From assembly GCA_042576705.1 (NCBI GenBank), contig JBHPEY010000001.1, positions 72,980 through 136,979 of the forward strand: a DNA stretch of 64,000 bases, read 5' to 3'. How positions within the stretch are numbered: position 1 is the first letter of the stretch; each line of letters starts with the position of its first letter. The notes under the pieces were generated by a model. The model saw only the letters and a list, made by a program, of their open reading frames with translations. It was not told the origin of the DNA and ran no database searches. Both the position numbers and the translations under genes were made by a program. Shown here piece by piece: positions 15,966 through 39,130 of this stretch. Origin of the DNA: Nanobdellota archaeon. Lineage in GTDB: Archaea > Nanobdellota > Nanobdellia > Woesearchaeales > UBA11576.

Positions 15966-16904
15966 TTATTTCTTCTTTGCTGCAGGTGCTGCTTTTCTTT
16001 CCCAATACTCCTGTGCTGTCCTGTACATCAGGATCCTTGAGAATACCAGGGCCGGCACGAATATCAGCGTGCCGAATACCATCAGCAGGAAAGGGTCGCC
16101 CCTTATGAAAGGGAGGCGCAGGAAGAGGTCTATAATCACGAAAAGCACTGCTATGAAGGCGAAGCTCTTCAGCGTCTTCGTGAACCTCTTTGTGCCGTAG
16201 ATGAAGCCCTGCTTGAAGTTCTGGAATGCGTAGCGGCTGGTCAGGGTGTAGCATAGCACGCCGAAATACCAGGTCACCAGTATGAAAAATATGAACAGGA
16301 AGTTTATGGTGCCTTCTCCTATTATCGGCGCTATGCTCATCTTCATTGCCAATGTGATGCGGACTGATATGAATATCCAGAATATGCTCAGGAAGTAGAA
16401 CGGCAGGGACTCCAATGCGAAGTTCTTCCAGAATACCAGGAATGGCAGCCTCTTTTTCTTCTCTGTCGCCATGCGGTATGCTATGTACCAGCTCAACCCC
16501 TGGAAGATTATCCAGAACAGGAAGGAGCACAGTATCAGCACGCCCAGGTACTTGAATATCACGTTGAGATGGTATGCGAAATCCGCGCTCTGGGTGACTG
16601 TGTTCATCCCTGCAGTCACTGTAGATGTCTGGTTGTAGATATTCATCAGGCCGCCGGTGGCCTCGCCGGTCATCTTCATAAGGGCTTCCAGATGCTCGAA
16701 CAGGGTGAACTGTATAAGTGTTATGACCGTGGATGTCGCTATCACGAACAGCAGGTCAGTGAGGATAGAGAGGAGCACCTGCGGCCAGTTTGTGTACCAT
16801 GATTTGAATGAGGTGCTGACCAGGTTGAATAGGTTGGATGTGCGTATGTCTGAGAGTATGGATGATGTGATTCTCTTTCCTGCTGATACCTTCTTTCGTG
16901 GCAT
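15966..16904 (-). CDS. Multi-pass membrane protein, last gene of the giant-protein operon
   Basis: About 6 TM segments; start moved to ATG 16904 behind AGGTGA; topology similar to 29444-30316. Confidence 0.8.
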   Translation of the reverse strand: MPRKKVSAGKRITSSILSDIRTSNLFNLVSTSFKSWYTNWPQVLLSILTDLLFVIATSTVITLIQFTLFEHLEALMKMTGEATGGLMNIYNQTSTVTAGMNTVTQSADFAYHLNVIFKYLGVLILCSFLFWIIFQGLSWYIAYRMATEKKKRLPFLVFWKNFALESLPFYFLSIFWIFISVRITLAMKMSIAPIIGEGTINFLFIFFILVTWYFGVLCYTLTSRYAFQNFKQGFIYGTKRFTKTLKSFAFIAVLFVIIDLFLRLPFIRGDPFLLMVFGTLIFVPALVFSRILMYRTAQEYWERKAAPAAKKK

Positions 16905-16918
16905 GACGTTCACCTATA

Positions 16919-17677
16919 TCAATATACGTCCATCTTCTGGTAAAACTCTTCTTCAGTGATGCCGAACTCGGCATAGCATGCGTCGAGCGACCTTTCACCT
17001 GACTCCTCAGCTATGAAACCGCAGAGCCCTGCATTTCTCGTCCCTACAGCAATGTCATAGAAGCAATCATCCTGGGAGAAATCACCTGAGATCATGGTCA
17101 TGTTGAAACACAGCTCCACATCACCGCCTTTTTTCGCAATCTCCATGAAGCAGGTGTCCTGCGAAAACTCGCCGCTCTGCTCACCAAGGCCATAGCATAA
17201 TGACGGCATATCATCCTTGATCGCTATGACAGCTATACACCAATCCCTTGACCTGGAACCTTCGACAGCCTTTATCATGTCACAATATTCCACCACAGAT
17301 GTCTTCCTTGCGAGCTGCCTGTAGCAATCCTCTTTGATGCTGCTTTCAGCGATCCTGTCACAGAAGCCAGGATCCTCGTTCGCCAAAGCCTGTGCAACAA
17401 GATCTGCACTGTCCGGGCCGGACGTTGCCCGAGACCTGCTTACAGCAGATATCTCTGCTTCCTCTTTTGCTGCATCCTCGACGAGAAAAGAGAATATAAA
17501 AAGTATAATGCCTGCCACAACGATGACACCGACAGCGATCAGTATCATCTTCTTGTCCAGTATCCCTTTCTGAGGTTCCTGCATAGTTGGTTGCTGCTGA
17601 GGATATTGCTGCTGAGGTTGCTGGGGATACTGCTGGGCAGGTCTCTGCACCCCTTGATTGTAATCAGATTCAGGCAT
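16919..17677 (-). CDS. Membrane-anchored protein with Q/P-rich N-terminus and Cys-paired repeats
   Basis: MPESDYNQ start at 17677, adjacent to the giant gene stop; QQYPQQ repeats, TM helix, about four C-x-I-x(5-9)-D-x-C-[YF]-x3-A repeats. Confidence 0.8.
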   Translation of the reverse strand: MPESDYNQGVQRPAQQYPQQPQQQYPQQQPTMQEPQKGILDKKMILIAVGVIVVAGIILFIFSFLVEDAAKEEAEISAVSRSRATSGPDSADLVAQALANEDPGFCDRIAESSIKEDCYRQLARKTSVVEYCDMIKAVEGSRSRDWCIAVIAIKDDMPSLCYGLGEQSGEFSQDTCFMEIAKKGGDVELCFNMTMISGDFSQDDCFYDIAVGTRNAGLCGFIAEESGERSLDACYAEFGITEEEFYQKMDVY

Positions 17678-17678
17678 T

Positions 17679-20600
17679 TTATGCACTCGTACATTTACAG
17701 GTCTGTGCTTTGGTCGGGCAAGCGCTGAGAAGCAGCGAGCAGACCTTCTGATTATCACCCTTATTGCAGTCATGGATGTTATTGATCCCGTCGCAGACCA
17801 GTTTCTTGAACTCAGCAGAAGTCTTGCTGGTGCAGAACTTCCTGTTATCCCTTGAAGACCAGACATAACACTCACCATCTTCAAGGCCATACACAGGATA
17901 GTAAAGCCCCTGCTCACCACAACTGCCCTTCAGTCTAACATCCACTCTATGGTAGACTGTGACACCATAATCATTCAATATATCGCTCGCAGGCGACCCC
18001 AGATACTCTCCCCTAAAACAACCAAGTGGAAGAGCTAAACCGCTCCAGCCGATACTAATCTTGCCTGACTTGAAGCATTCCTGCACCAATGCCTTGAATT
18101 CCCCGTTTGAAATACATCCAAACACACATTTGGACCCCACAACCTTATTGCAATAATACTTTTTCATCTCATAAGATGACAACGGTTTACAATCACTGGT
18201 ATCTGTTGTCAAACCGGGAACGCAATATCTGTTGCTTGGACATGGCTCAAGGATGGGCGTGCCTGTGGGAGATTTTTTCTGGACAGACTTATACAAGGTA
18301 GTCCCTCCCTTAAATACGCCAGAGGGTATGCTCGTAACCCCCGCACCACAATTGCCTGTAATCACTTCATCAGGCTTCCCCGGAATACAGCAGACATCAT
18401 TGATCGCCTTGCATGGCCTGAAAAAGTCGTCCTTAGCAGACTCTTGAAATACATCCAAAACAGTACCCTGGGCACATTCATTAGTATCTGAAACGCATCT
18501 GTACATAGTCTGTAGAGGCGGTCCGCAAGAATCAACAGGCGTCCTGGGAGTACAGCAGGCCAGGTAGGATTCCTTGCAGGGTATGAAATCGCCACCAGGG
18601 TATTGTGATGGATTCTTAACTGAATTCTCTGTACAATCATCAATATCTGCTACGCAACTGAGTTGCTCGTGCATGAGTCCGCAAGGTGCTCCAACACCTG
18701 TCGCGGTTCCTCCGCCACCAGGACTGGCACCGGGCGGTCCACCGACACCCGCGGGCTTGGGCGGGGGCTTTGGCTTTCCTGATCCGTCGATGCAGCACTG
18801 ATTTCCTGTTGGGCAGAGACCTGCGGGTTCTTTGGTAAACGCTGTTGTCGAACCCTTGCACGTGCCTCCTGTCCCAACGCAGAATGTGTCCTCATTAGGA
18901 GGCAGTTTTACGCTATTTCCATTGGCGTTCTCTGCCATCACATGTTTCAGGCTGCACTTGCTGAAGCAGTACATGCCTGTGTCTGCCTGGCCTGCCTTGT
19001 AGCACTCGCCCTCGGTGTTCTTGACTATCGTGCATCTTGCTCCTGCTGCCTTGCCGGCGCACGCCTTTGAAGCAGCCACCGTTGTATCAAGCTTGCTTAT
19101 CTGGAGCAGTGTGCTCTGCATCGCAGGAAGCTTGAAGATGATGCTGTCACCTCCCAACAAGACAAGACAGCCTGTGGGCGATGCAGGACACTGGAGAAAT
19201 GCTCCTGCTACTCCGCTCAGCTGTATTGCAGTGTCGGACTTTGTCCTGACCCCCATCGGCAGGACATCAACCTTCAACTCGACCATCTCTCCTGCTGCCT
19301 GGCCTGTCACCTCGACATAGAAATTGATTGATGAGCTACCCATTGTAGCATCTATACCTGTGATGGTCACTTTGGCATCGCTGCTCAGCCCGGACGCAGT
19401 CACGCCATACAATGAGGGCTGGCTTGCAGAGAGTATTATCGTCTTGCCTTTGGCATCTCCAAGGCCGGATACAGCATAGGCTGCAGTGGCTGTCAGTCCA
19501 TATACATGGATCTTCTTGGCATCTTCTGAACCGAGCGTCTTTATTATGAGAATGTTCGCATCAGGGATGTGCACATAACATTCCCTCTTTGTCGGGTGGT
19601 AATTGCCTTTCACAGTCGGTCCTGCTGACTTGGTGGTTTTCTGAGGCGTGGCTCCAGTTCCTGTCGGGACGACTGTCGAGGCACCCGGCGGGCAGCAAAG
19701 GACGTATTTAGAATCGTCCTCATTACACAGCTCCTTCTTGCATCCCTTTGCAGAAGAGCATTTATCCAGGTCCTGTCCTGTGCATGCAGCAGTCATGTCC
19801 TGGCATGTGTTTCCCGTCGTATTAGCATCACACTCCTTGCCGTCAGACTTTATCTGTATCGCCATGCCTGTTATCTTCGGAATCTGAGGCTCTGCTTTAC
19901 CAGATGCTGGAAGGTATCTTGACTCTGAGTGGATGTCTGTCACGGCTTTCCCAAATATCCCTGTCGCGCCAAGGCATTCGTCCATCCCTACGTCGTCTAC
20001 ACTTATCCCGGAAGGCTTGCCTGAAAAGCCCAGACCGGACAGGTTGAATCCTATAGTGACGCCAGGCTCAAGGAATGAACCGGGATCTGTGGAAAACTCT
20101 ATATCGAAACCGTCCTCGTTCTGAACATAATTATTCAGGACAACCTTCTTGAGTGGTGTCGGATCGCCGGGTATCGGGTTGTGCAGGCGTATCTGACCAC
20201 TGCTGCCGACAGGACTGTCATATGTAAGCTGCAGACCCCCTACAGGCATTGCAGCGACACCTGTCGCGCTGTCGAAACCTGAGAAGGTGAAGACAGGGTC
20301 CTGCCTGTTCAGCTTCAGCCTTATCACGCGTTCGTTGATGCTTGCGTAAGGCGTGGTGATGCATGGAGGCACGCCGCAGGTCGGCATATCCTCTCCATTC
20401 TTCTTTATCGTGAACTGGGAGTCAGGTATGAGACCGATCTTGTCCAGGCCTATGTTGAGTATACCATAGTCTGCTTCAGGGTTTATTGTTATCTTGAATC
20501 CATTGGACCTGTCATTCGGGTCTATCCAGGCGAAGTCAGTCACACTTATCTTATCTTCAGGACCAAGGCTGTTCGCGTCTGCCCAGAGGCCGAAGGTCTT

Positions 20601-23600
20601 GTTGTACCCGTCATTCTCCTGCCTAACTACCGCTGTCCTGTATGTCAGTTCTTCTATCGATCCTTCCGACGCTGCCTTTGTCCCTGATGCGCCGCATATC
20701 ACCTTGAACTTTATCTCCTTCTTCTGCAGCTGGTTGGTATCATAATCCACAAGAGGCCCTGATGCCATCTGGTAGTAGCCAGCGACTGAATCTGCGTCGC
20801 GCAGTTCAAGGTTCATGATCCAGGTCTCAGGGTCTTTGGCGCAGTTTGACGAACTCATCGTCGAGGTCGGCGGCTTGTATTGCATACCCACGACCTGCTT
20901 CTTTTCCACTGCCTTTCCAGGGCTTCCGCCGGCGGTCGTGACCCTGCCCTTGTTCTTGATAAAATCCTTGAGCACAGTGAACTTTATGCCGTAACAGGTC
21001 ACCTGCTGGTCCATTGCAGGCTCAGCAACCGGCTGTTTTTCGCAATTTGTGAATGACTTGCCGGTAAAGACGTATTTCCCATCCTTATCAGGCACTGCTT
21101 TCTCATAGGAGAAGAATGGCTTGGCTGACGTGCCGTCTGCCGTAGGATCAAAATATATACGTATCTGGAAAACAGATGACGAACCGACCTCTGCGCAGTT
21201 AAACTGAGGACGCGAGACGACGACCTGGCCAGGTATCGACTCAACACCAGGAACCCCCTCTGGAGTGCATGAGCCAGGTGCCTGCTTGCCGAAATGCTCT
21301 GACTTTATCTCAAACTCACCATTCTCCTTGACATGCTGCGGGAAGCTGTTGACATCGAACACACTGAAGTCATGGATCGTGTCCTGGTTCAGCCGCTCAC
21401 CGACAGTCTTCTTGCCTGCCGGCGGGTATATGACAGCGCTCTGGCCGTTCTTTATCGATGTTATCACAAGATATTTCGTGAATTCACAATCAGTGGTGCA
21501 GGAAGCCGCGTCCTTTGGCAGCAGCTGCTGCACCTTCACGTTGACTATATTATTATCACCAATGCCGAACGGCTGGTTCTCAGGCTTGGTAAGCTTTTCT
21601 GAAAGGAAAGCCGCGCTTCCTGTCGGTGGTATCTCCACACCACACTTGAAAGAGAGTGAGGGAATCTGGAACTCGCAAAGGCCCATAGGTGGTCCGCCAA
21701 TCTCGCGCACAGTGCCTTCACCCCTGCCCTGCAGGGATGTTGCAGTCGCCATGGTCCCGCCGAAGCCTGCTGTGTTTGTGGTGCCTGATGTACCTCCGGC
21801 ACTTTGGCTCACAGAACCTCCATAGCCACTAGTACCTGTCTGAGTAAGAGGCCTGTACTCCACGACAGCCTTGTCATACCTGAGCGGACCCTGTACTCCT
21901 TCGACGACAAAAAGCACCTCGTCAGTGCAGAACTGTCCCTGCCTTATGTCACCACTCTCAGGGCAGTTGCCGCTCTGGTGGCGCATTATCGGAAGCTGGA
22001 CCTGCCTGTTCCGTGAAGTGTAGTCTGCAAAAGTGCCATGGGCGCAGTCGCACTTTCCATCCTTTCCTCCTGGACAGATGCCGTTCGAGCATTCAAGCTT
22101 CAGGTCGAAATGCATGTCAGACCCTGCGAACACGCTGTAACCCACCCTGTAGACATGCCTTGCAAAGCCTGTCTGGGGATCATATGCCTGCCATCTCCTT
22201 GTGACCGGGGAGACAAATATCGTGCTGTTGACAGGCAGGTATGCTGCTGTCTCAAACAGCTGGCTAAAGTCAGTCGGCCATTCACCAGTAAACATGAATA
22301 TGCACGCGTCATGCAAAAGGTTCTCTGCAGCGAACGCTGTCGCGAAAAGGTTCCGGTCGCCGTATCTTGACTGCGCCTCTGTTGTTATGCTTGCGCTCGC
22401 GTCGGCGACAGCAGAGAAGACTCCGCTTATACCACCTATACCTATCCTCGCAGCAGACTTGCCTCCAAGCCTCTGCGTTATGCAGCTTATCGCCTCCTTT
22501 ATCAGGTCGCATATGTACTGGCTTATCAGCGCCTGGCACTGGCCTGCGCTTCCGTCGCCGGTGACGAGGATCGTCTGGAAGCACTGCTGCAACAGCGTGA
22601 GCATGTTACGCAGCTGCACAACCCAGCTCAGTATGCCTGAAAGGCAGAGCGTGACCACTGATTGTATGAAGCTACCTGCAGGCTGAGCAAGGTACTGACG
22701 GCCAGGCTCTCCGAGAAGTCCGGTTATCTGACGATACCAGTGCTCGAAATTCGTGGGCGTGGGTTTCCTCTTGGTCTTGCCGACCCGCATCTCTATCTTG
22801 CCTTCAGCAATCTGCTTCTCTATATCCTTCCTGAACTCCTTGAGATTGGAATCAAACTCTTTTTTCGCATCAGCACCTTCTTTCTCCTGGCTGATGTCTG
22901 CATTGTTCAGGACAGGAAACCATTCATTAAGGTTTTTTGACTGCGGGATGAAATACGCTCCTGTATTGATCTCCACCCTCCCGTCAGCCTGCACCTGGCC
23001 GAGATTCTTGACTTCGATCTTGGAATAGTATCCCCTGAAGACAGTCTTGGGACTTCCCTTCTCGTCTATATCGACGACATAGACAACATCATCACCTATC
23101 ATCTGCTCTGCAGACTTCGGATAGCCCTTGACCCATTTCAGGTTGTCAAGCACCACTGGCTGCGCCTTGGGCTTTGCACCCTTGGGCTGGCAGATCCCTG
23201 TGACGCCGCGCAGTATCGTCTGGCCTGCGCCGCACTTGCTCTTGTCCTCGGGATTCGCGAGGCAATAAGACATCTTGAGCTCATTGCTCCACATCATACC
23301 CCAGCCCCACTCCTGCATGTACTCGAACGGGCAGCAGGCAGGCTGCGGAACATGGCCTTCTGCACATACTTCCTTTGCCCGAGCATTGGTCTCGTAGGTA
23401 TTGTACATCTCCCTGACAGGTCCACTGCCGAGCTCTACGAACGCGCAGTCAGACTTTGCGTTCTTGTAGGGGGGTTTTTTCCAGATATTTTTCTCATAAT
23501 TGACAACATTACTGTAGTCTATCCTGGATGACGTGGTTGCAGCAGGCTTTGCACTTGAACTCTTGGTGGCTGCTGCCAATCCTGTTATCAGGGGAACCGT

Positions 23601-26600
23601 GTCTGTTCCAGGACCTGGTTGAGGAAGGGATGATGATTCTGAGTTGATGTCTGTTATTGCTTTGCCTGTAGGGCTGACACGCATAGGCAGGCATTCACCG
23701 AACTCGGTATCACAGTACTGACCTACGGTGCAGACATTGTTGCCACAGGTGCATTTCCCCTCTGTCAACTTCTTGTCCATTGAATCATGCGCGTTCTTGC
23801 AATTCCCGCCCGACTGCTCACACCCGGTGCCTCCGCACACCCATACTGCTGTATTTGTCGATGCCTCACAGGTCTGACTCCCGCACTTGCAGGCCTCGTT
23901 TATCTTCTGGTTCTGCACAGACCCTTTAGTATCGAACACAGGGCATATATTTGTCTTACCAGCAGCTCCCTCGCTCTCGCTCTCGCCAGGCCCTCGCCAG
24001 GGAGTCTTCTTGCCACTTGCCCAGTTGGACTTTATGTAATGCTGGAATGAAGGGACGCTCGGGCACATCACCCTGTCGCAGAACAGGTGCCACTTGTCTG
24101 TAATTGTCCGCTCCTTCTCAATCCATCTTGCGCAGTCCTTGCAGGCGCGGTTTGCAGCTTCCATGCCCTCCTGATTCTTAGGGTCCTTCGGGTCATCCTT
24201 AGGGAATTCAACATCACAGGCTCCACCTGCCTGGCCATTGTCCATCCCTGCGACCTTCTCTATCATGCCGTTACTTATCTCCTTAGCCATATTCACAATT
24301 CCCTTGAAAAGTCCTCCTGAAGTGAGCTTCGACAGCGCGCCGCTCCACTTGCAGTTGTATCCCTTCATGAAGCCGGCAATGTATTTCGCGAGGTAAGTGA
24401 TAAGACATATCCCCAGGGTAACCTGCGTCACATACTTGAGAGGGGTCTCAATCATGTCAAGGAAAGCCAATGTCGCGTTTATGACCTCCAGCGACGCCTC
24501 AAGAAGGCTCTTCACGAACGCGCTGCTCGCGAAATCAACCCTCTCGTCGAGCATTATATTGACATTCAGGCACTGCTTCTGGATCTGGACAGGCTGGGTC
24601 GTGCCCGGCGCCTGGCTGCTGTACTGCGCCATGAAAGGGCCAGGGTCAGAAACTATCTGCATCTCAAGCAGCAGGTGGATGCAGCCTGCAAGAGGGTAGC
24701 ATTCCCCTTTCCTGTGGTTGCTGAGGTTCTTCTCCTTCTCAAGATAGGTCGTGCCGTTGGCATCAGCAGTCATGGGAATGAAGTTTATCATGACAAAGCC
24801 CTTGGTGCAGTTGCCTTTCTTGCACATCACACGAGGCTCGCCGGCGAGCCAGTCAAAATCATAATTCTCACGCTCTTTTGCCCCTACAGTCGCCTTGACG
24901 ACGCGGACATCCTGCGCCTTTGCCTTGGATGCGTCACCACCACCGACCCATGTGAGATCAAAACCGAATCCATACGCAGCGATGCCTTCCAAGAGCTCAC
25001 GCGTGTTTATCTGGCTGCCACCTTCCTTGAGCTGGACAGTCCAGTAGGACGTGGTCCCGCAAGGGGTGTATGATAAAGAACCCTCGACAGGAGTTGACTG
25101 CCTGCCATATACGTCGACAAAGACCAGCTTCACCTTGGTCGGGGTGCTTCCTGTGCCGCCTGTGGTGCTTATGCCAGATACAGAGGCTGACGTCTCTGCT
25201 GTCGTGGTCCCTGCGCCGCCGCTCATGGCAGAGCTGATCGCTGCGACCACGCTCGTCGCAAGGTCCACCTCTATCTCAAACGTGCCGTTCTCACCTATAT
25301 TGATCTTCTCATCAGGCTCGCCTGCAGCTGCAGTGGTCGCGGTGCCCAGCTCGCCCGCGCTTATGCTGGCTGCGCTCTGATCCACCCAAACCCATATCTC
25401 GCCGGCATTCTTGTTCACCTGGCCTGAGATCAGGATCGAACTGGTATAGGAAGGTGAATAAAAAGAGACAAGCTCGGCAGAACTCGGGCTGATGATCTGC
25501 GGGTCCACGCTGTCATACTGCATGGTCAAGGTCTCCTCGAACTTGTTGCCTGCCTCGTCCACAAACTCCAGCCGGACATTGTTCGACCCGTTGAACAGGC
25601 CTGTAACAGTCTCTGTGAACTCTATGGTATGGTTCGCAGTCGTCGTGTAGGTCTTTGTCAGCACAAGACCAGGATAAGGAGGGGTTATCTTCGAGATTGC
25701 AGGCGCGGTCACATTGCCTGCGCCTGTGGTCACTGAGAATGGCGATGATTTCGCGCCTTCATTCCCTGCGTCATCGATGGCACTGACCGTGTATGTATAC
25801 GTCGTCTGGCTGCTCACGTTCTGGTCTTCGTAGTCCGTGACTGTTGACTCTGCGTATGCTATCGGGCCGTCAGGCACGTCAGACCTGTATACCAGATACT
25901 TGTATATCTCAGTCTCGTTCGCAGGGGCAACCCAGGATATCTTTATCGAACTGTCTGTCACGCTTGTGTTCATGACTTCAGTAGGGGCGACCGGGCCGGT
26001 GGTATCGTCGACAGACTGCAGATATATATAGAGCGTAACTTTCGTGTCATCAGTCACGTTCCCCTTGATCTGGATCGACTGCTCGGTCGAGACAGTCAGG
26101 TTCAGCGTCTCGTTATCGAAATGAACTTCAGGAGAGTGATAGTCAAGAAGGAGCCTGTCCTCACAGACGATGTCAGCAGATACCTTGTCTGACGCCACGA
26201 TCCTGATCGAGTTCTCGCTATGCTGGGCGTCCAGGTCCATCCCTGTAAAACTGAACTCACCTGAAGACGTGATGCGCTTGTAGCGCACCCTCTCGCCGTT
26301 TATATAGGCAGTCACATCAGCCCCAGGTGATGATGTCCCCATGGCATCATACCTGTTGCTGTTCGCATAGTCTGCTGTCGATGCGCTGCAGTCCAGGCCA
26401 TCCACGTTCAGGAAAAGGTCCACCTTCTGCGAGGTCTGGACTGTCGTGACAGATGAGTTCCCGCAGTTGCCGGTCAGGTCGCAGGACTCTGCCATCAATG
26501 TATAATTATAATTCTCATCAAGCCCTGTCAGGGTGATGTTGTGCTGGGTGACATCCTCAGCAACCTCTTTCTTCAGGTCAAGCAGCAGCGGGTTCTTCCC

Positions 26601-29442: not shown

Positions 29443-29443
29443 G

Positions 29444-30316
29444 TTACCTCTTTTTATTTGATGTCTTCTTGTTCCTGCCCTTGATTGTCCCTGTTCCATC
29501 CTTTGCCATCGTCGCGATCAACCTCAGGTAATAGAACCTGAGCCATGAAAAATAACCGACCAGCAGGATGGTCGAGATTATCGTGAAGACAACCATGTTC
29601 CCTGCCAACAGGAAGATGAACTGGATGAGATTTATGATCACAAGGATGATGATAGAGAACAGCAATGGGATGAGAAACCTTCCGAAACCCCTGATGCCTG
29701 TCTGGTACAGTCCCTTCACAGCGCCGCGCAGGGTCTTCCTCCTGACAAGGTGCGTGAAGATATTTATCGAGAACCAAAACAGCGCAAAGAAAACTACTGC
29801 AAGGATGACGATGCTAAGCACCCCGCTCACAGCACTCACATCCATATTCCTGCCGAAAGTCAGGAACGTGATGAACTGCAGGACCATGAAGATGATGAAC
29901 GACACGATGCCCCACAATATCGACATGACGACAAACCTCCAATACACTCCCCAGGCAAACCCTGTCTTCAATAATGTGTCGTATATCCTGTTCTTGATGA
30001 ATGTCCACACTGCAATGATGAAAAGTATCAGCAGCACAGTCGAGAAAAAGAACGTGCCCAGCACCTTGGCCATGACCTGATCACTTATGGGCGTGCCGAA
30101 TGACGACGCGTAATCCCCGAAGCTCTCCATCTGTGTCCTCAGCCCGCTGATATCATCGTCAAGCGACATGATGCTCCTGTTCCATGTGAAACCGCCTATC
30201 ACGAGCAGGGCTATGAGCAGGAACTCAAGCAGCACGACGTAAAGCAGTCTCCGGTCTATCCTGATGAAGGACTCCTTCAAAAGTCTCCAGTGTCCAGAAA
30301 CAATAGCTAAACACAT
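29444..30316 (-). CDS. Multi-pass membrane protein with basic C-terminal tail
   Basis: About 6 hydrophobic segments; stop 1 nt before the next ATG. Confidence 0.8.
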   Translation of the reverse strand: MCLAIVSGHWRLLKESFIRIDRRLLYVVLLEFLLIALLVIGGFTWNRSIMSLDDDISGLRTQMESFGDYASSFGTPISDQVMAKVLGTFFFSTVLLILFIIAVWTFIKNRIYDTLLKTGFAWGVYWRFVVMSILWGIVSFIIFMVLQFITFLTFGRNMDVSAVSGVLSIVILAVVFFALFWFSINIFTHLVRRKTLRGAVKGLYQTGIRGFGRFLIPLLFSIIILVIINLIQFIFLLAGNMVVFTIISTILLVGYFSWLRFYYLRLIATMAKDGTGTIKGRNKKTSNKKR

Positions 30317-30338
30317 TTTGCGTCAATCCATATATCCT

Positions 30339-31796
30339 TCAAGGCGAAAGCCCTGGTGTCGTTGTTGCAGCGCCTGGAGCGCCTGTTGTCGCACCCGGCG
30401 CCGTGATTATAGGTGTAGGAACGATAGGAGCAGTCGGAAGCAAAGAAGGCCCATCCTCATCCGCAAACTGCTGGTACTCGCGCTCGTAACCAGCGACTAT
30501 CGTCTGACAGATAGGATTGTCCTCTTCGTCAAACATGCCGCCGAATACAGCGTGGACCTGGTCAAAGTTGAGGAACTTGATACAGATGGTATCATACACC
30601 TGCGGGGTCTCAAAATAAAACATGTTCGCTCCTGCAAGGCTCAGCTTCTCACCTGCCTCCAGCTCTATCTCACCATACGTACCGTAGATGTTATAGATCT
30701 CCTCATCAAGGTATATGATGAACTCCATAGGACCCTCACCGGCGCTTATCTCTCCGGATATCTTGTAAGCATAATATGGGTCACAGCTCGCGTTCTCGTA
30801 TCTTCCCAGGACACTCAGACAAGGGTCTATATACACACGCTCGCCTTCCATGTGCGCGAAGCTCCTTCCTGAAGGGGATGTTATGAAACCCCTTGACCCT
30901 GCGAGGTTAGGATCATAGAGATGCCTGTCATCACAGTAATCCTCAGCCCACCTGTTTATCGTCAGGTCCATGCCGAAATCAGACGTGCTGTCAGCACCTT
31001 CACCGAACCATGACGATCCCAGTGTATAGAAACTGCTCGAGAAAGCGCCTCCAAAGATGAAATTGAACCAGCCACCTGAAGCATAGACCTGGTTGGCTAT
31101 GTTAGGCCAGTTAAAACCGCTCTTGAACTCGGCTGCTTTTGGGTCCACAGGTGTTGTCTTTTTGCCACCTGTTTCGCTCTTCTGGGTACGAACAGATTCC
31201 TCGGCAGCTTTAGCATCTGCAGGTCCAGCTTTAGTTTGCGCATCTCTGATATTTTGTGCAAACTCTGCGTCAACCTTGCTTGACTCTCCATTAGTTGGAG
31301 TGAGAAAAACCCCTTCATCACCCCTATCGTCGACTGTCCACGTCACCCCGCCCCGCTTGTATTCGCCCGGGCCTGTGCGTGTGTAGATGTCACCATCCAA
31401 ACTGAAACTGATGGGTTTAGCAGGGGCGGTGGGAGCAGCGGGAGCAGCAGTGGAACCAGGAGCAGCAGAAGAACCCTCTTTTTTCTGTTTTGGATTATTA
31501 GTATCAGCGGGAGCAGCACCAGCTGAAGAATCTGGCGAAGAACCTGCCGCGGCAGGTTGTTGAGGGGAAGTTTGCTCAGCTTGCTTGGTCAGTTCAGAAC
31601 TCAGAGAAGAATCAGTCACTTCACTATCGTAAATACCTTGGCGCCACCACTTTCCATTTTTATATATATAATTATCCAACTCACGCCCTTCCGCAATCTC
31701 AGCATCTACAATATAAGACTGCTGCAAAGTTAGGAACATGCAAATGACTATGCAACTGATAATCTTCAGGATCGTGTCTTGATTCTTCTTATCCAT
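30339..31796 (-). CDS. Secreted or anchored protein with P/A/S-rich linker, internal aromatic-Gly hydrophobic segment and P/T-rich tail
   Basis: N-terminal ILKIISCIVICMFLTL; PAAPTAPAKP linker; GGWFNFIFGGAFSSSFYTLGSSWFG segment. Confidence 0.8.
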   Translation of the reverse strand: MDKKNQDTILKIISCIVICMFLTLQQSYIVDAEIAEGRELDNYIYKNGKWWRQGIYDSEVTDSSLSSELTKQAEQTSPQQPAAAGSSPDSSAGAAPADTNNPKQKKEGSSAAPGSTAAPAAPTAPAKPISFSLDGDIYTRTGPGEYKRGGVTWTVDDRGDEGVFLTPTNGESSKVDAEFAQNIRDAQTKAGPADAKAAEESVRTQKSETGGKKTTPVDPKAAEFKSGFNWPNIANQVYASGGWFNFIFGGAFSSSFYTLGSSWFGEGADSTSDFGMDLTINRWAEDYCDDRHLYDPNLAGSRGFITSPSGRSFAHMEGERVYIDPCLSVLGRYENASCDPYYAYKISGEISAGEGPMEFIIYLDEEIYNIYGTYGEIELEAGEKLSLAGANMFYFETPQVYDTICIKFLNFDQVHAVFGGMFDEEDNPICQTIVAGYEREYQQFADEDGPSLLPTAPIVPTPIITAPGATTGAPGAATTTPGLSP

Positions 31797-31820
31797 CTTA
31801 AATCATCTATCTCAATATAA

Positions 31821-34800
31821 TCATGTCGTAGGTGTTTCGGGAGTCGTCTCTGTTGTGGTCGCGCTTGCGGCCTCTGATTCTGCTTCTGTCTCATCCATGT
31901 CTGTCGCGAATCCCAGGTTCGCGTAGCTCGGGTCATCCTTCAGTGCCTCTTCGCAATAATCGAATGAGATGTCCTTGAACCTGTCAGCAGTGTTCTCCAC
32001 GAGATCAGTGACCAGCGCCGCCAGTGACAGCGCATACATGGCAACCATGCATGCCTTGCAGCCCCAGAAAGCAGGGTTGCCGCATATGCCGAGCGTACAG
32101 CCCTTGTCCATGACAAGCCCCAATACAAACGACGCAGGCTGTTTCACAATCCGGTTAAGGACCAGGCCTATCTGCTCGATATACTGCGTTATGGGAAGCG
32201 CAGCGAATATCTGGCCGGTAGCCCAGGTGCACATCTCATAATCATACTGCTTATCGCACTGCCATTTCGGCCTTCCCTGTGCGGCATCTATCTTCAGGCA
32301 GAGCAGTTTCTTGCACTTGATCTGCCTGTACTTCTCAATGTTCATCAATATACCTGGAAGACATGCTGAACCTGCGCTGGTTATGATACTCCTCGTAGGG
32401 TCAAAATCATCCACTGAGAAGATGGTCAATCCTTCTGTCACGTCCTCCATCCCTTTCCTTTCTTCCACAGTGACGGTCATACCCAGCGACTTGGACAAGG
32501 CCCTATTTGCAGCAGCAAGATTAATATACTCAGCCCAGAAACCATTCCACTTCGCCCACGTCTTCTTGACAGTGCACCAGCCGGTCTTCTTAGGGCAGTT
32601 CGCTACCATGGCCTTCTTCGCGTTCTTTGTCAGCCTGCAGGATATGAAAAGGCCGCACATGAAATACAGCTCACCCATCATGTCCTTAGTAGCGTCTGCA
32701 AGCGCTGCTGTTGTCTGGCCTGCAGTCTGGGAGGCCTTGCAGCCACCAGGCCCAACCACTTTTGCGTTGCACACAGTGGTGAATATCTCCTTGAGGCCTG
32801 CCCACATGGTCATCAGAGACATATACATCTCGATGAAACGGCACATCTCACGGGCGTAAGCCAGTATCATATTGGTATAATGCACAACATCGTCTATCGT
32901 CTGATCCACATCCTTCTCAAGCTGCGCTATCTCATCATTTATGTTGCCTATGTTCTGGCCAAGAGGATTGTTGTAGACAGGTATCGGGAATGAGACATTG
33001 ACCCCTTCAGGCAGTGTCAAAGCCTTTCCTGTGGTTGAGGTCACGATTGACTGCATATAGAATGTGCAGTTCACATAGACCTCATCGACAGAGACATTGC
33101 CCCCTGATCCATCTATCATGTAATATTCAGGCACAGAGCCTGGGTTCAGTGCTATCACAAAGATATCCTGGGTCGATCCGGATCTGAAGTCGCCGAAGCC
33201 CATCAGCCCAACCTCAAACTCGCTGGTGACAGTGTCCTGGTTCACCCAGTCAAGACCTACGCAATCCATCGGATCAAGATTAATCGAAGTGACGCCCAGC
33301 ACACCGCCATATGAATACATGTTGAGCCTGTAATACATCCTGTGGTTGCCGATGCCCCAGCTCAACCGGTCGATGCCGCTCGAAGGGGAAAAGCTGTCCA
33401 CAGCAATCATCCATCTCGTGGCTGAGACATTCTCCTTCTCGAGGATCTCTATGTTGCTCCATGTATATGTATAAGAATGATTTGTGTAATCATAGAATGT
33501 GAAAGGTATCTTCAGTCCGCTCAGGTATCCCCTCATCAACGGCTCACTGGGAGACCACTTGCACTCGAAGATGCGCTGATCCATCTCAGCAGGGTCGATA
33601 TGATTCTCCGTGCAGACTCCTTCTTCAGCCCACTCACCGTTCTCTATGACATGTGACAGGTTCGCGACAGCCTTTGATATGCCTGAATGGTCCTTGACAA
33701 ACAACGTGATCTCCAGCATATCACCTGAGCTCAGGTTTGTCATCTGTCCAGACTCGCCGAGGCCAGTCATGTTGGAATGCGCAAGAAGCGCCGCATCTAT
33801 CTCAGGGGGATCGCGGTCAACCTTGAAATTGCCGTGAGGGACAGGGACTGCGAACAGGTTCTTGGCATCATCCATCGAGCCTGCCATCGGCCTCAGGTAA
33901 AGGGACGTCCCGCTGCTCTTGTCAGTGCCGACCCAATCCCAGAAACAGTTCCAGTCTGGCACGCAGCTGTTGGGATGCATGACTCCGGCGACAGACCCTC
34001 CCTCGATCGGCTGGGCACCGAATGACGCGAAGTCAAGGAACAGCTTACGGTACGCCATGCCTGAATCAGCCTCTACAATACTGGCGGTTATCCTGTTGTT
34101 CTCTTCAGCAACCCAGTAATTGCCCTTATCATCGACGTAACTTGAGTATATCTTGGTGACCACAGGCCGGGTGCTGTCAAAGGTCATCGGGACAGGTGTG
34201 ATCTCATCCAACCTGTTGCCATTGTCATCCTTTGCATAGATCCTCGCAGAGATCGTCTTGGGAGAGCTCATCACCACGAATATCGGGCCGACAGTGCAGA
34301 TGTAGGGTGTGCTGCCTGTGCATTGCGCTGTCATGTTACCAAAGATGGGCTCATGCTCAGGACGCTCACTGAGCCCTGACGCGTTCACGAAGACATCCAG
34401 CAAGTCACCGTCCTCTGAGATATTGAACTCGAGCAGGACATTGCCTATTGTCTCGCCGTTGGTGTATATGACATTTTTTCCGGTCAGGTCAACAATACGG
34501 ATACCAGAGACCACAGGAGGCCTGGCATCTACATTGACATCCGTGCATTCAGTGCTGCTCTGGCCGAGCAGGTCAGTCATCTCGATACAAACCCTCTTTG
34601 ACTCAACCTCTCCTGCGACGACAAGGCCTGTGAGGTTGACCTCCCCATCGAACTCGCATCCTGAAGGGAAGCTATTATTCTGCCCCACGGGCAATCCTGC
34701 CACTGTGAACCTGATGCTCGACATGCCCACGCAGATGTTGTTGCACGCAGACTTATCACATGATTCATCCTTGATATCAAACGCAGCAGTCACGACACCA

Positions 34801-35270
34801 TTCTCATGCGCGGTGTAGTCCACAGGACTCATCAGCTTGGGAGGCAGGTTATCGACAACCACAGATCCACTCTTCGGCGCTGCCAGCGGTGCCTGCGCAT
34901 CACTGAAGAGCCGCACAGTAAAACTGAATATGCCTCCTTTTGAAAGGGAGACCTCAGGATATTCCTTTATGCACTCGAACCTGCCAGCTATCTCTTCGGA
35001 AGGTGTGCAGTTGAAGGTAGCGCCAGGGTCCTCCACAAGACGGACCTGCGTCGGTTCCAGTATCGGGTCATCAGGCACCGTGGCTGTCACGTTTATCACT
35101 GTCGTGTCGGTCTGGCCGCGGAAGTGAGGGATGCCCTGGCCTCCCTGGACCACGACAGAATCGATGGACGCAGCCATGGCGTCAGCCGAATAGATCGGGA
35201 GAGTGACTACTAGGAATATCATGAACATTGCAATGTTTATCAGGTAGGTGTTTCTCCTCATTTTATCCAC
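31821..35270 (-). CDS. Large (1149 aa) secreted protein with Ig-like domains and C-terminal Cys-patterned helical domain
   Basis: Signal peptide ...IFLVVTLPIYSADAMAA; VDN.PP / VDARPP / FDSTRP / VDRDPP Ig junction motifs; C-terminal P..S.I.S....CL.GIL motif shared with the giant protein. Confidence 0.88.
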   Translation of the reverse strand: MDKMRRNTYLINIAMFMIFLVVTLPIYSADAMAASIDSVVVQGGQGIPHFRGQTDTTVINVTATVPDDPILEPTQVRLVEDPGATFNCTPSEEIAGRFECIKEYPEVSLSKGGIFSFTVRLFSDAQAPLAAPKSGSVVVDNLPPKLMSPVDYTAHENGVVTAAFDIKDESCDKSACNNICVGMSSIRFTVAGLPVGQNNSFPSGCEFDGEVNLTGLVVAGEVESKRVCIEMTDLLGQSSTECTDVNVDARPPVVSGIRIVDLTGKNVIYTNGETIGNVLLEFNISEDGDLLDVFVNASGLSERPEHEPIFGNMTAQCTGSTPYICTVGPIFVVMSSPKTISARIYAKDDNGNRLDEITPVPMTFDSTRPVVTKIYSSYVDDKGNYWVAEENNRITASIVEADSGMAYRKLFLDFASFGAQPIEGGSVAGVMHPNSCVPDWNCFWDWVGTDKSSGTSLYLRPMAGSMDDAKNLFAVPVPHGNFKVDRDPPEIDAALLAHSNMTGLGESGQMTNLSSGDMLEITLFVKDHSGISKAVANLSHVIENGEWAEEGVCTENHIDPAEMDQRIFECKWSPSEPLMRGYLSGLKIPFTFYDYTNHSYTYTWSNIEILEKENVSATRWMIAVDSFSPSSGIDRLSWGIGNHRMYYRLNMYSYGGVLGVTSINLDPMDCVGLDWVNQDTVTSEFEVGLMGFGDFRSGSTQDIFVIALNPGSVPEYYMIDGSGGNVSVDEVYVNCTFYMQSIVTSTTGKALTLPEGVNVSFPIPVYNNPLGQNIGNINDEIAQLEKDVDQTIDDVVHYTNMILAYAREMCRFIEMYMSLMTMWAGLKEIFTTVCNAKVVGPGGCKASQTAGQTTAALADATKDMMGELYFMCGLFISCRLTKNAKKAMVANCPKKTGWCTVKKTWAKWNGFWAEYINLAAANRALSKSLGMTVTVEERKGMEDVTEGLTIFSVDDFDPTRSIITSAGSACLPGILMNIEKYRQIKCKKLLCLKIDAAQGRPKWQCDKQYDYEMCTWATGQIFAALPITQYIEQIGLVLNRIVKQPASFVLGLVMDKGCTLGICGNPAFWGCKACMVAMYALSLAALVTDLVENTADRFKDISFDYCEEALKDDPSYANLGFATDMDETEAESEAASATTTETTPETPTT

Positions 35271-37450
35271 TCTGGCTCGAGCTCTGTCCTGTAGATGCTC
35301 GAGTATTTCCTCACCTCGCCTACCTGCTCAAGGCCAGGCATGTTCCTGAGCTGTGTGGTATGGGTAGCCGGCAGCGGGAACCTCAACACAAACAGGTTCA
35401 GCTTCTTGCTGCTGAAAAGCTCGTCTTCAGGCACGTGGAAGTATCCGCTCTCATTATCCAGGGATACCCCTCCTTCCTGCCACCTGTCCATCAAAGTCTC
35501 GTTCAGCTCTATAGGTACATCGTCACCGAATATCCCGCCATCATATACCTTTGTCTCCTTAGGTATCCTCACTGTGTCATTGTAGATCAGGTATCCTTTC
35601 ACCTCGTATGTGCCAGGCATCATCTTCATGGTAGACATCTTTCCCTGACCATAACCAAAGGTATAGGCCCTGTACCCCTTGAGCGGATCCTCATCCACAC
35701 GCTCGAAAAGGAACAGGTACATCTCCTTCCTTGAAAGTGAACTCACAGGCGCAGCAGGAGGCAAGATATAGTTGTAATCCTGATAAGCAAGAGGTCTCGC
35801 GAACACGCTCACGTTTATCATCTTGAAAGGCATCAGCTCGACCGTAAGGTTCTTCTCCCTTGTCGGCGAGGCATAGAACCTGTCCACATGTTCAATATAG
35901 TTAATATGAGTCACCCTGATATCTCCAAGGCCGATCGGGAGCGAGGTCTCGATCACCGACCTGTTCTCAGAGTCGATCTCTGTCAGACCGACATGACAAC
36001 CTTCAACTCCGAACTCCAGCGACACAATCGCATCAGTTATACCTCTGCCTGTGATCCTGTCCTTGACCTCGATCGTCACCGGTGCGCTCTGCTTCTGGTT
36101 CTGACTGCAGATGAGCGTGCCCTGTTCCTCCCTGAAGACCGTCCCATTGCTCATGTTGATCGGCTGATTATACCGCAGGTTCTGCTCCAAAGCGAACCTG
36201 AAGTCAAAGCCTTCCCCTGCAAAAGCAGTATTGTCATTAAGATCTACCATGACAGGATAAGCGACGCTGTAAAGGAATACATATTGCTTGAAACCCAACC
36301 AGCTGATGATAGGTATCGAAATAGTGGTCGGCATGAGCACCTCCCTGTCATTTATGTTAAGATATATAGGCCACCAGTCAAGATAGGTGAACCTCGCCCT
36401 GATGTTCGGGTATGACTTGCCGACACTGATCACTGTATTGTCCATCACACCAGTCCCTGTCCCATCATAGATAAGCTCCCCTGCCCTGTTGTCCTTGAAC
36501 ATCACCACCCGCTTGAAATCCCTTGAACCATTCAGCTGTAGCGATGCTATGCCCGAAGTAAGCATGTTCTGCTCCATCTTCTCCTTTGTCCTGGTCCTTG
36601 TCCAGAAAAGGAACTCTGTGGGATCAAGACTGAACGCGGCGATAGGTGGAAGCTTATTCATGGAGACCGGCTGCGAATACATGGATATCAGGTTCATGGT
36701 GTGGGTCTCAAGGAACTGCATCTCAGCCTCTTTCATTGCCAGCTTTGAGGCAACATCATATATGTCCTTGAAGCGGACGTCCAGCTTTGTGAAGAACGCG
36801 GATATTTCTGTCTTCTTGCCTTCCCTGGAAATCTGGAGCGGATAATCCACAAGTATGGCTATCTCGCGCTCTGCCACCTTTGCGTCTGTCGTGATCCTGC
36901 CAAGCTCGGTTATATCAAAGCCCTGCTCCTGGAACGCCTTGAAACCGTCCACGCATTTCACAAGCTCCCTGTTGATGTAAGCATCAAGCTGTCCCTCTAT
37001 GGAGTAAAGGCTCTCTGTCTTCCTGAGTGGAGGCATGAAACTATCAAACTCGCATGTTCCAGAACACTTGTTGTGCGACTTCAGATACCACCAATACGGT
37101 ATAAAGCCAGACTTGTCGAACAGCATTATACCATCTGATTCTGTGGGCTCCATACCTGTAAGGAATATCGTGCCGCTGATGCTCATGTTGTCTGGATCGA
37201 CATAGCCGCCGTGCAGGCCTATCTTCTCTATGGCTTCCCTGCCGATCTTCTTCACGCAATCTTCCACGAATATCTTTACCGGCTGCGCCTCCAATGACAC
37301 CTCCTCGATCGAGGGTATCAGCTCACCCGACAGTCCTGTCGTGATCTGCCCCCTTATGTAGAAGAGAAGGGCAGACGAGAATAGCAGGATCACTCCGATT
37401 ATCATGAACACTGTGATCTGCGCTTTCCGGTTGTTATGGAATCGTGTCAT
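35258..37450 (-). CDS. Large prepilin-like (class III signal peptide) protein, paralog 1
   Basis: MTRFHNNRKA/QITVFMIIGVILLF; ATG 37450 overlaps the upstream TGA (ATGA). Confidence 0.85.
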   Translation of the reverse strand: MTRFHNNRKAQITVFMIIGVILLFSSALLFYIRGQITTGLSGELIPSIEEVSLEAQPVKIFVEDCVKKIGREAIEKIGLHGGYVDPDNMSISGTIFLTGMEPTESDGIMLFDKSGFIPYWWYLKSHNKCSGTCEFDSFMPPLRKTESLYSIEGQLDAYINRELVKCVDGFKAFQEQGFDITELGRITTDAKVAEREIAILVDYPLQISREGKKTEISAFFTKLDVRFKDIYDVASKLAMKEAEMQFLETHTMNLISMYSQPVSMNKLPPIAAFSLDPTEFLFWTRTRTKEKMEQNMLTSGIASLQLNGSRDFKRVVMFKDNRAGELIYDGTGTGVMDNTVISVGKSYPNIRARFTYLDWWPIYLNINDREVLMPTTISIPIISWLGFKQYVFLYSVAYPVMVDLNDNTAFAGEGFDFRFALEQNLRYNQPINMSNGTVFREEQGTLICSQNQKQSAPVTIEVKDRITGRGITDAIVSLEFGVEGCHVGLTEIDSENRSVIETSLPIGLGDIRVTHINYIEHVDRFYASPTREKNLTVELMPFKMINVSVFARPLAYQDYNYILPPAAPVSSLSRKEMYLFLFERVDEDPLKGYRAYTFGYGQGKMSTMKMMPGTYEVKGYLIYNDTVRIPKETKVYDGGIFGDDVPIELNETLMDRWQEGGVSLDNESGYFHVPEDELFSSKKLNLFVLRFPLPATHTTQLRNMPGLEQVGEVRKYSSIYRTELEPEWIK

Positions 37451-38448
37451 GATATCGACCTCATGCACGTGAACTGGTAAAAGTCAGACTGGATGTCATT
37501 GCAGATAGCCTCAAGCTCATATCTCGGGCGCTGATGCGTACTCAGGGCCGTGGCGATGACAAGCTCACAGATATCCTTTTCAGGGCCTTCCTTCTCCTCG
37601 CAGATGAGGATGCCGTGATAGTAGTCGCCGCCCAGCTCCTGCAGGGTGTTGTCTATTATCCTTGTGGTGTCCTTGTAGAACTGGTATCCCATTGTGCCCC
37701 CTATCATGAGAGTGAGGACCCAGAACGTAATTATCACGTACAGGAATACCTTGTCCTTGTGATGCAGCGGACGGTCCTTGAACCTCTCAGCGTAGAAATA
37801 CTTCCTCTCGTTGAGGATGTACCAGATGATGATCGAGTTCATCACGACCAGCGAGATAAAAGAAAGTATCAGGAGATTCCTGAACATGGGATGCTCTACA
37901 GAGTCGAAGAGGATGAGTGAGATTATTGAATTCAGCGCAGTGAAAGCAAAGAAGCCTACCGACAGGTCGAAGGTATATGCCTTGCGCCTCCAGAATCCGA
38001 AAACCATCGCGAAGATGATTGCGAGAAGGACTGCGTTGATTATCAGTGCGCGTGTGCCTTCTATCATCTTTCCGAAAAGGATCGTTGTCGGGAAAGTGAT
38101 GCCATAGATGAATGAGATGAGATAAAGGAATGAGAGGAATGTAAGATAACCTATGAGAAACTTTATGCCCAGGGGGATGAGGTACTTGCCGCGATGTATC
38201 GGTGATGGGACAAAGAACTCTTCCTCAAGCTCGTGAGGGACTCTCTGAATCTTCTCTTCCAGGAGCTTTGGTTTCGGGATGATCTTCAAGAACTTCTTCC
38301 GCTTTGTGCGGGTCTTTGGTCTTGATTTGGCTTTCTTTTTGGCTTTGGCTTGAGGTCTAGATGGTGTTTTCTTCTTAGAACTAGAGCCAGAGGTCTTTCT
38401 GCTCGTTTTACTAGTCTTCTGTGTACTCTTACCCCTTTTTTTTACCAC
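37447..38448 (-). CDS. Membrane protein with Lys/Ser-rich N-terminus and C-terminal Cys-paired repeat; first gene of the operon
   Basis: About 5 TM segments; CEEKEGPEKDICEL...CNDIQSDFYQFTC resembles the repeats in 16919-17677. Confidence 0.8.
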   Translation of the reverse strand: MVKKRGKSTQKTSKTSRKTSGSSSKKKTPSRPQAKAKKKAKSRPKTRTKRKKFLKIIPKPKLLEEKIQRVPHELEEEFFVPSPIHRGKYLIPLGIKFLIGYLTFLSFLYLISFIYGITFPTTILFGKMIEGTRALIINAVLLAIIFAMVFGFWRRKAYTFDLSVGFFAFTALNSIISLILFDSVEHPMFRNLLILSFISLVVMNSIIIWYILNERKYFYAERFKDRPLHHKDKVFLYVIITFWVLTLMIGGTMGYQFYKDTTRIIDNTLQELGGDYYHGILICEEKEGPEKDICELVIATALSTHQRPRYELEAICNDIQSDFYQFTCMRSIS

Positions 38449-38472
38449 AATGATTACCTACTCTACGTTATA

Positions 38473-38484
38473 GCTGTATACAGC
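38473..38484. promoter_or_regulatory. Perfect 12-bp palindrome GCTGTATACAGC upstream of the giant-protein operon (possible operator)
   Basis: Lies between a TTTATAAA box (38544-38551) and the start codon at 38448. Confidence 0.3.
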
Positions 38485-39050: not shown

Positions 39051-39130
39051 GAAAAAGTTGTTCTTATTGATGTTTCTTGTGCTGCTTCTGTTGTTGTGCT
39101 TATTGTTCTTGTTGTCCTTGCTGCTAATGC

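Follow-up and report, generated by a model that had tools for sequence, protein, structure and literature searches.

What is built by a set of genes that encode only surface and membrane proteins, have no characterised relatives and keep a fixed place beside a housekeeping gene in nearly every genome of an archaeal order? The question concerns nine genes, g1 to g9, in 64,000 nt of DNA (hereafter the window) from a Nanobdellota archaeon (Woesearchaeales; UBA11576; assembly GCA_042576705.1, contig JBHPEY010000001.1, positions 72,980-136,979 of the forward strand), of which g1 is the first gene after that of methionyl-tRNA synthetase (MetRS). Few uncultivated archaea are as widespread as Woesearchaeota and Pacearchaeota and, to our knowledge, their attachment to other cells, or their life with them, has so far been linked to no gene. 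The cluster therefore offers a concrete target. Nine surface or membrane proteins outside characterised families, set beside the same housekeeping gene throughout the lineage, probably form an undescribed membrane-anchored surface structure. In the reading that we favour, with a probability of about 0.6, the operon supplies the structural components of a surface complex that is anchored in the membrane and particular to this lineage; in it, a base made of the protein families C3, POLY and G1 holds an arm formed by a large protein without an anchor of its own, BIG or GIANT.

A coupled operon of surface and membrane proteins

The nine open reading frames (ORFs) run from 38448 to 15966 on the minus strand, and neither strand offers a sizeable competing ORF. 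With the most plausible starts, g1/g2 (37447-37450) and g2/g3 (35258-35261) overlap through ATGA. Gaps of 1 nt separate g5 from g6 (stop 29444-46, ATG 29440-42), g6 from g7 (27364-66 and 27360-62) and g7 from g8 (17679-81 and 17675-77), and the remaining gaps measure 24 nt (g3/g4), 22 nt (g4/g5) and 14 nt (g8/g9). A hydropathy scan places an N-terminal hydrophobic segment or several transmembrane segments in each of the nine products, among which the Pfam and NCBIfam models reach threshold only with Fn3/immunoglobulin (Ig)-type domains in the first ~630 residues of g7. No match to the operon was returned by PADLOC, and Fn3 alone by PHROGs. An earlier reading of this DNA, made from the letters and their translations (the sequence-only reading), had described a coupled nine-gene operon in which every product carries a signal peptide or membrane segment and none a recognisable enzyme motif, and all of this is borne out. 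The same reading saw no ATPase, prepilin peptidase or TadC-like gene inside the operon; indeed, the operon holds no ATPase, peptidase A24 or T2SSF gene, and those of this genome are all encoded on other contigs.

A locus kept across an order

About 35 loci from Woesearchaeota metagenome-assembled genomes (MAGs) and metagenomes were annotated with family hidden Markov models (HMMs). The order MetRS-G1-C3-BIG-(G4)-POLY-C3-GIANT recurs in eight of them (L005, L016-L019, L023, L030 and L039), and a second arrangement, BIG-small-POLY-C3, in L022, L031, L038 and L041 as well as on contig C5 of the present genome. MetRS adjoins the cluster in 15 fetched loci, among them L005, L014, L015, L017, L019, L021 and L022. 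Every locus fetched with a BIG query and long enough in its flanks contains C3, the loci devoid of C3 all stopping at a contig edge. The sequence-only reading had proposed a candidate surface machine of DPANN archaea, to be tested by synteny among relatives, and it passes this test: gene order is strongly kept across the loci surveyed. Named homologs all come from MAGs labelled 'Candidatus Woesearchaeota' or 'Nanoarchaeia', so the DPANN origin of the window holds.

The C3 profile finds matches in 287 of the 301 genomes of a phylum sample drawn mostly from the window's own order, usually three to five per genome, but in only 8 of 37 in a sample spread evenly over the families of the class; C3 thus occurs almost throughout one order and in few sister families. 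The cluster is no rare island: it forms a core locus of the order, near-universal and in several copies. A second alignment-based search for homologous proteins added almost nothing to the relatives found earlier. Identity to locus L014 amounts to 76% for MetRS, 66% for g1, 53% for g2 and 49% for g3; to locus L017 it is 69% for MetRS, 66% for g1, 46% for g2, 42% for g3, 31% for g4, 28% for g5, 64% for g6 and 52% for g7. The most conserved operon protein is g1, with 66% identity where MetRS has 76%.

Two of these loci, L014 (CAZXTQ010000039.1) and L021 (CAYXZQ010000024.1), are labelled 'uncultured Methanosarcinales archaeon'. The first carries a Woesearchaeota-type MetRS-G1-C3-BIG arrangement and the second MetRS with a truncated BIG at the end of the locus; both bins are probably mislabelled or mis-binned.

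Repeated modules

As judged by sequence comparison, the repeated unit consists of C3, a large exported protein (BIG or GIANT) and POLY, and is accompanied by the single-copy membrane proteins G1, G4 and the PQ/Cys-repeat protein (Table 1). The two C3 proteins, g2 and g6, are paralogs (BLASTP E 6e-36, 27% identity over 546 columns) that begin almost identically, with NNRKAQIT[VI]F near the N-terminus, and orthologs of g6 precede the giant in L006 and L016-L019. The relationship between the two POLY proteins is more distant: BLASTP finds no similarity between g5 and g9, and when g9 is kept out of the training set, the g5-family HMM recovers it among 11,243 ORFs at E 2e-5 in the second round and 1.4e-8 in the third. 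Its other matches in the genome are confined to contig C35 and to contig C5, the latter within a third module that consists, in this order, of BIG (1063 aa), a secreted protein of 177 aa, POLY (263 aa) and C3. A fourth protein with the same N-terminal cassette, of 1395 aa, is encoded on contig C23.

The large proteins behave differently. BLASTP aligns g3 and g7 over the signal peptide only (65 residues, 34% identity), g7 is not matched by the HMM of the g3 family, and hhalign likewise aligns the signal peptide only (probability 49%); a Cys-rich helical stretch that looks alike by eye in both reaches a probability of 3.9% (E 0.011). The two are accordingly best described as positional equivalents whose common descent these sequence comparisons do not demonstrate. 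The sequence-only reading had proposed duplicated modules of a prepilin-like and a large protein. The operon does hold duplicates, but the genes that they cover differ: the C3 pair stands, the large pair shares its signal peptide only, and g5/g9, for which no duplication had been claimed, has to be added.

The recurrence of the C3/BIG/POLY triad in two gene orders and in three copies in this genome also bears on another explanation, namely that these are independent surface proteins grouped for co-regulation and do not form a single machine. In its favour, G4 and the PQ protein vary in position and presence among loci, and interaction among the products is so far a prediction. Still, translational coupling at most junctions and the need of BIG and GIANT for a partner add to the recurrence of the triad, and we regard mere co-regulation as very improbable.

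Table 1. Features of the operon and its upstream flank; positions are those of the window and the slash marks the proposed cut
Feature	Position	Strand	Description
MetRS (methionyl-tRNA synthetase), upstream neighbour	39131..41332	-	Pfam tRNA-synt_1g, E 4e-156
Upstream intergenic region	38449..39130	-	682-nt spacer, likely promoter
g1 (family G1)	37447..38448	-	333 aa; Lys-rich cytoplasmic N-terminus, ~5-6 transmembrane segments, C-terminal 4-Cys domain
g2 (family C3, copy 1)	35258..37450	-	730 aa from ATG 37450; class III-type signal MTRFHNNRKA/QITVFMIIG
g3 (family BIG)	31821..35261	-	1146 aa (1149 aa in the sequence-only reading); conserved Sec-type signal peptide IAMFMIFLVVTLPIYSADA
g4 (family G4)	30339..31796	-	485 aa; hydrophobic segment at the N-terminus, linkers rich in Ala/Pro/Ser, Cys-containing domain at the C-terminus
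g5 (family POLY, copy 1)	29444..30316	-	290 aa, polytopic, ~5 transmembrane segments, no invariant residue
g6 (family C3, copy 2)	27364..29442	-	692 aa from ATG 29442; cassette MDLFPNNRKA/QITIFIIIG
g7 (family GIANT)	17679..27362	-	~3227 aa from ATG 27362 (ORF 3239 aa); signal peptide of g3 type
g8 (PQ/Cys-repeat family)	16919..17677	-	252 aa; Gln/Pro-rich cytoplasmic N-terminus, one transmembrane segment, extracellular two-Cys repeat domain
g9 (family POLY, copy 2)	15966..16913	-	315 aa, polytopic; distant g5 relative

C3 proteins carry a class III-type signal

Both g2 and g6 display the features of a class III signal, that is, a short basic leader, [KR][GA] at positions -2/-1 and about 20 uncharged hydrophobic residues: g2 begins with MTRFHNNRKA/QITVFMIIGVILLFSSALLFYI and g6 with MDLFPNNRKA/QITIFIIIGIIIIF. 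The residues Q, T, F, I and G that follow the proposed cut are at least 90% conserved among 40 C3 sequences, and no other stretch of 23 residues in the family is as conserved as residues 9-31 (rank 1 of 708 windows). In the AlphaFold2 model of g2, built on a 40-sequence alignment (predicted local distance difference test, pLDDT, 84.5), a membrane helix (8-37) is followed by a low-confidence linker (37-45), a helix (53-79) and a novel alpha/beta domain (~50-440), and the C-terminal half is made of tandem CnaB/transthyretin-like beta-sandwiches. When the whole chain was compared with PDB and BFVD by Foldseek, only these beta-sandwiches found matches, with low TM-scores, among CnaB, transthyretin-like and carboxypeptidase regulatory-like domains, Gram-positive pilins and phage baseplate proteins. 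The C3 sequence profile has no match among PDB sequences (0 hits). The models of g2 and g3 were also checked for identity with a known S-layer (surface layer) or archaellum component, and Foldseek assigns neither protein to one.

The sequence-only reading had called g2 and g6 prepilin-like proteins of ~700 aa. This description fits the N-terminal cassette, shared with small pilin-like genes of the same genome; the Pfam models of pilin N-termini do not match, however, and in the structural model the N-terminal helix is followed by a flexible linker and no clear pilin fold. In four relatives (G002, G025, G027 and G085), proteins of 230-430 aa match the C3 profile only at its N-terminal module (1-85, 140-250), which indicates that this module also exists in stand-alone, pilin-sized form.

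Filament genes elsewhere in the genome

The sequence-only reading had suggested locating a pilus ATPase and a prepilin peptidase outside the operon, and both are present. Contig C56 (6.3 kb) carries seven consecutive small pilin-like genes, each headed by a [KR]KA/Q-type class III signal, and a type IV filament (T4F) cluster on contig C6 (27600-38300) includes two platform genes, an ATPase gene and genes for small pilins whose N-termini are of the AMEFLMTYGWAILV type. ATPase, peptidase A24 and T2SSF genes are distributed over contigs C6, C8, C30, C26 and C5, those for peptidase A24 being on C26 and C5. In a sample of the order that takes a single genome from each family, 58 of the 61 genomes encode peptidase A24 and 52 of the 61 a canonical T4F platform protein (T2SSF). 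Five of the nine genomes without canonical T2SSF were rechecked: all have an ATPase of ~760 aa, and a weak platform-like ORF of ~750 aa lies beside it in three, on another contig in one and nowhere in the fifth. The proposal that C3 persists in genomes without T4F machinery fails on this count. Given the presence of these genes elsewhere in the genome and in the order, processing of C3, and even its assembly into a filament, is possible.

These data lend some credit to a pilus-tip or priming complex, in which C3 proteins would be oversized minor pilins built by the T4F machinery and BIG or GIANT would be carried at the filament tip as PilY1 is by bacterial minor pilins. The class III cassette is common to C3 and the small pilin-like genes, nearly all genomes of the order have the peptidase A24 and the T4F ATPase and platform genes, stand-alone counterparts of 230-430 aa exist for the N-terminal module of C3, and a large Sec-exported partner without an anchor parallels PilY1. 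We nonetheless hold this assembly to be unlikely. In all ~35 loci the T4F genes are unlinked to the cluster; the failure of the Pfam pilin models and the flexible linker that separates the N-terminal helix from the globular part also speak against a pilin; and a dedicated polytopic protein in each module suits a membrane-resident complex better. Moreover, a 2026 survey reported T4F loci to be rare in DPANN (PMC13705601).

Large exported proteins without an anchor

The first of the large proteins, g3, consists of approximately seven Ig-like domains (30-765) followed by a Cys-rich, all-helical C-terminal domain (769-1100) in which the motif C-LPG-x3-N-x2-K-x2-Q-I-x-C is invariant. Its AlphaFold2 model (24 sequences) has a pLDDT of 75.7 overall, of 85-90 in the Ig part and of ~50-60 in the helical part. 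Foldseek returns only generic Ig arrays for g3 (GhpA grappling-hook fragment, SbsB, PrgB, cadherins and alpha-2-macroglobulins), with TM-scores of 0.09-0.16; the likeness to SbsB, at 0.10-0.15, is of this generic Ig-array type. In g7, an Fn3/Ig array occupies the first ~630 aa and ~2600 aa of orphan Cys-rich sequence follow. The description of both as large Ig/Cys-rich proteins in the sequence-only reading is correct as to the Ig arrays and the Cys-rich domains, but the Cys content (2.9% in g3, 3.5% in g7) lies only at about the 90th-95th percentile of the large ORFs of the genome. A class II fusogen or fusexin-like fold was considered and dismissed, as Foldseek against PDB and BFVD yields only Ig, CnaB and transthyretin-like arrays.

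What the two proteins share is their export signal. The motif FMI[FW]LIV-x-[LM]P[IV]YS occurs within this genome only in g3 and g7, and the N-terminal signal segment of BIG ranks 17 of 1092 windows in conservation. Ordinary cleaved signal peptides are not this conserved, which suggests that a specific membrane partner recognises the signal of BIG and GIANT; POLY or G1 could, speculatively, be that partner. Taken together, the high conservation of the N-terminal hydrophobic segments of C3 and BIG argues that a peptidase, an assembly system or a membrane partner recognises them specifically. Since BIG and GIANT have neither a C-terminal transmembrane segment nor a sorting signal, and hence no anchor of their own, a partner must retain them.

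Very large genes are also found elsewhere in this 1.70-Mb assembly (77 contigs, 89% complete): contigs C11 (123-48626, plus strand) and C13 (2-47122, plus strand) hold open frames of ~16,168 and 15,707 aa, and several others span 3,600-6,000 aa, a giant-gene load that is extreme for a 1.7-Mb genome.

Membrane proteins of the operon

An alignment of 12 G1 members shows four invariant cysteines (C283, C294, C316 and C328). A search of 1.84 billion proteins with the G1 profile retrieved only 215 cluster representatives, and none of ten distant members that were scanned has a Pfam domain; identification of g1 as a known membrane enzyme was therefore abandoned. The POLY protein g5 was likewise compared with YidC/Oxa1-like insertases (60KD_IMP, PF02096) and this assignment rejected, as a single one of 15 POLY members matches, at 19.8 bits for a cut-off of 35. 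In relatives, larger versions of G4 occupy the equivalent position. The most likely start of g8 is 17677, which gives a protein of 252 aa rather than the 333 aa of the ORF. A profile made from the proteins that follow BIG in L005, L015, L024 and L006 recovers g8, and paralogs of g8 are encoded on contigs C5, C12, C18 and C28.

Glycosylation sites and the S-layer question

Near-universality in the order, a fixed site beside a housekeeping gene, Ig arrays resembling those of S-layer proteins such as SbsB, and divergence that is moderate and not hypervariable could also describe a core envelope scaffold, with BIG and GIANT as an S-layer or S-layer-like canopy, C3, POLY and G1 as its membrane stalks, and a role that is structural instead of one in host contact. 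The distribution of N-glycosylation sequons (N-X-S/T) argues otherwise. Their density is ~1.3% in g3 and 0.7% in g7, for a genome median of 0.43%, and reaches 5-7% in at least 15 other large ORFs, several of which have evident signal peptides (for example C59:429-4253, with 93 sequons in 1275 aa, C16:15574-19995 and C27:2-8989). Judged by sequence, these ORFs would suit a glycosylated coat or S-layer better than the operon proteins do. Within g7, 19 of the 23 sequons fall in the first 900 aa, and the remaining ~2300 residues are nearly sequon-free and Cys-rich. No operon protein matches a known S-layer family in Pfam, and the S-layer family PF05123 is absent from the genome. The low sequon density, the absence of PF05123 and the multiplicity of non-identical modules make a lattice role less likely; two or three such modules and a 3239-aa protein would be unusual for lattice subunits, and the Cys content is high for an S-layer protein. 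On balance, a scaffold of this kind appears quite unlikely.

Flanking regions

In the spacer between MetRS and g1, a 20-nt TATA-like unit is repeated 2.3 times in tandem at 38562-38608, a position 115-160 nt upstream of g1; this repeat is probably a multiple promoter element of the operon. A direct repeat of ~60 nt was seen by eye at ~38700-38840 and was not called by the tandem-repeat finder. MetRS is a synteny anchor and no functional part of the operon. Downstream lie a rubrerythrin-type gene and a MoxR/DUF58/VWA operon. The latter (5720-14209, opposite strand) comprises MoxR (AAA_3), DUF58, double-VWA/BatA-type proteins and DUF7406-7408, and is situated ~1.7 kb beyond the end of the surface operon. 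Rfam has no RNA match anywhere in the window. A part in anti-phage defence or a viral origin was discarded on the grounds of the empty PADLOC scan, the Fn3-only PHROGs result, uniform base composition and the fixed site beside MetRS.

A membrane-anchored surface complex

In the surface complex that we favour, a prepilin peptidase encoded elsewhere would cut C3 after [KR]KA, and the hydrophobic helix of the mature protein would keep it in the membrane, or in a short pilus-like stalk, beside POLY and G1. The beta-sandwich stalk of C3 would hold its partner BIG or GIANT, whose Ig/Fn3 arm may project over tens of nanometres and bind a surface, most plausibly that of another cell. Gene content, paralogy, conservation, topology and class of fold are what the sequences and models establish; the cleavage, the pairing of C3 with its partner and the adhesive role are deduced from them. 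Adhesion or cell contact is a plausible purpose, and the most plausible one, for a complex of this proposed architecture. The more specific roles advanced by the sequence-only reading (tip adhesin, effector, membrane penetration, bridging) were pure inference.

Several observations weigh against this proposal. Because no component matches a characterised family, function has to be deduced from fold class and topology alone, and the pairing of C3 with BIG or GIANT is deduced from adjacency only. Pfam and NCBIfam models for pilin N-termini or class III signals do not match g2 or g6 at E up to 0.1, and in the C3 model the N-terminal helix leads into a low-confidence linker and not into a pilin fold. 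None of the ~35 loci encodes an assembly ATPase, platform or peptidase in cis. Finally, the operon proteins evolve faster than MetRS without being hypervariable, which fits a core envelope part as well as an adhesin.

A bolder version of the same architecture deserves mention. C3, BIG/GIANT, POLY and G1 might constitute a previously unseen envelope machine of Woesearchaeota and Pacearchaeota, in which a peptidase-processed anchor and a dedicated membrane protein deploy a giant, disulfide-rich arm that contacts the host cell and possibly the host membrane. We put this forward tentatively and think it rather doubtful; if true, it would provide what is missing on symbiosis in the largest uncultivated lineage of DPANN, its molecular basis. 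The cluster also provides antigens for labelling, proteins for assignment in cryo-electron tomography and for proteomics, and defined candidate substrates for the retained prepilin peptidase.

Comparison with known systems

Literature searches found no paper describing the cluster. Among the published work closest to it is module 98 of Castelle et al. 2021 (PMC8204110), a set of 51 protein families restricted to the Woesearchaeota and Pacearchaeota, most of them of unknown function. The operon families are alike in taxonomic distribution and missing annotation and very likely belong to this catalogue, a membership deduced from the matching distribution. That work lists families only, whereas operon structure, paralogy, fold and function lie outside it.

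Large non-pilin proteins with class III signals are known in the sugar-binding proteins of Sulfolobus and in a wider set (PMC13705601). Like the sugar-binding proteins that the Sulfolobus bindosome (BasEF) assembles, C3 is large and extracellular and has a hydrophobic helix preceded by a short basic leader and a [KR][GA] cut site, and both are encoded apart from the T4F machinery with the peptidase elsewhere. In contrast to them, C3 has no solute-binding domain and no adjacent ABC transporter, is paired with an Ig-array protein and POLY, and its cleavage is predicted only.

The tip of type IVa pili (FimU-PilVWX and PilY1) offers a parallel in layout, with pilin-type genes beside an anchorless, large, Sec-exported adhesin and the motor elsewhere. 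No relationship of sequence or fold was found between the two systems, C3 has ~700 aa where minor pilins have ~150-200, each module of the operon includes a dedicated membrane protein, and the organism is an archaeon.

The SlaA/SlaB pair of Sulfolobales (PMC10903991) resembles the operon in another respect, a large Ig-rich exported protein being held by a separately encoded, membrane-anchored partner. The operon proteins differ from this pair by the lack of homology, their few sequons, the several modules per genome and the Cys-rich helical domains. Moreover, the anchor of SlaA/SlaB is a C-terminal transmembrane segment, whereas the candidate anchor here, C3, would be held by an N-terminal class III-type helix. 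In the model, the C-terminal half of C3 is built of CnaB/transthyretin-like beta-sandwiches as in Gram-positive pilins and adhesins. Sequence and models thus suggest that the cluster combines class III-signal surface proteins with Ig-array proteins of adhesin type, and that DPANN archaea may use the class III-type signal on very large non-pilin proteins paired with giant partners.

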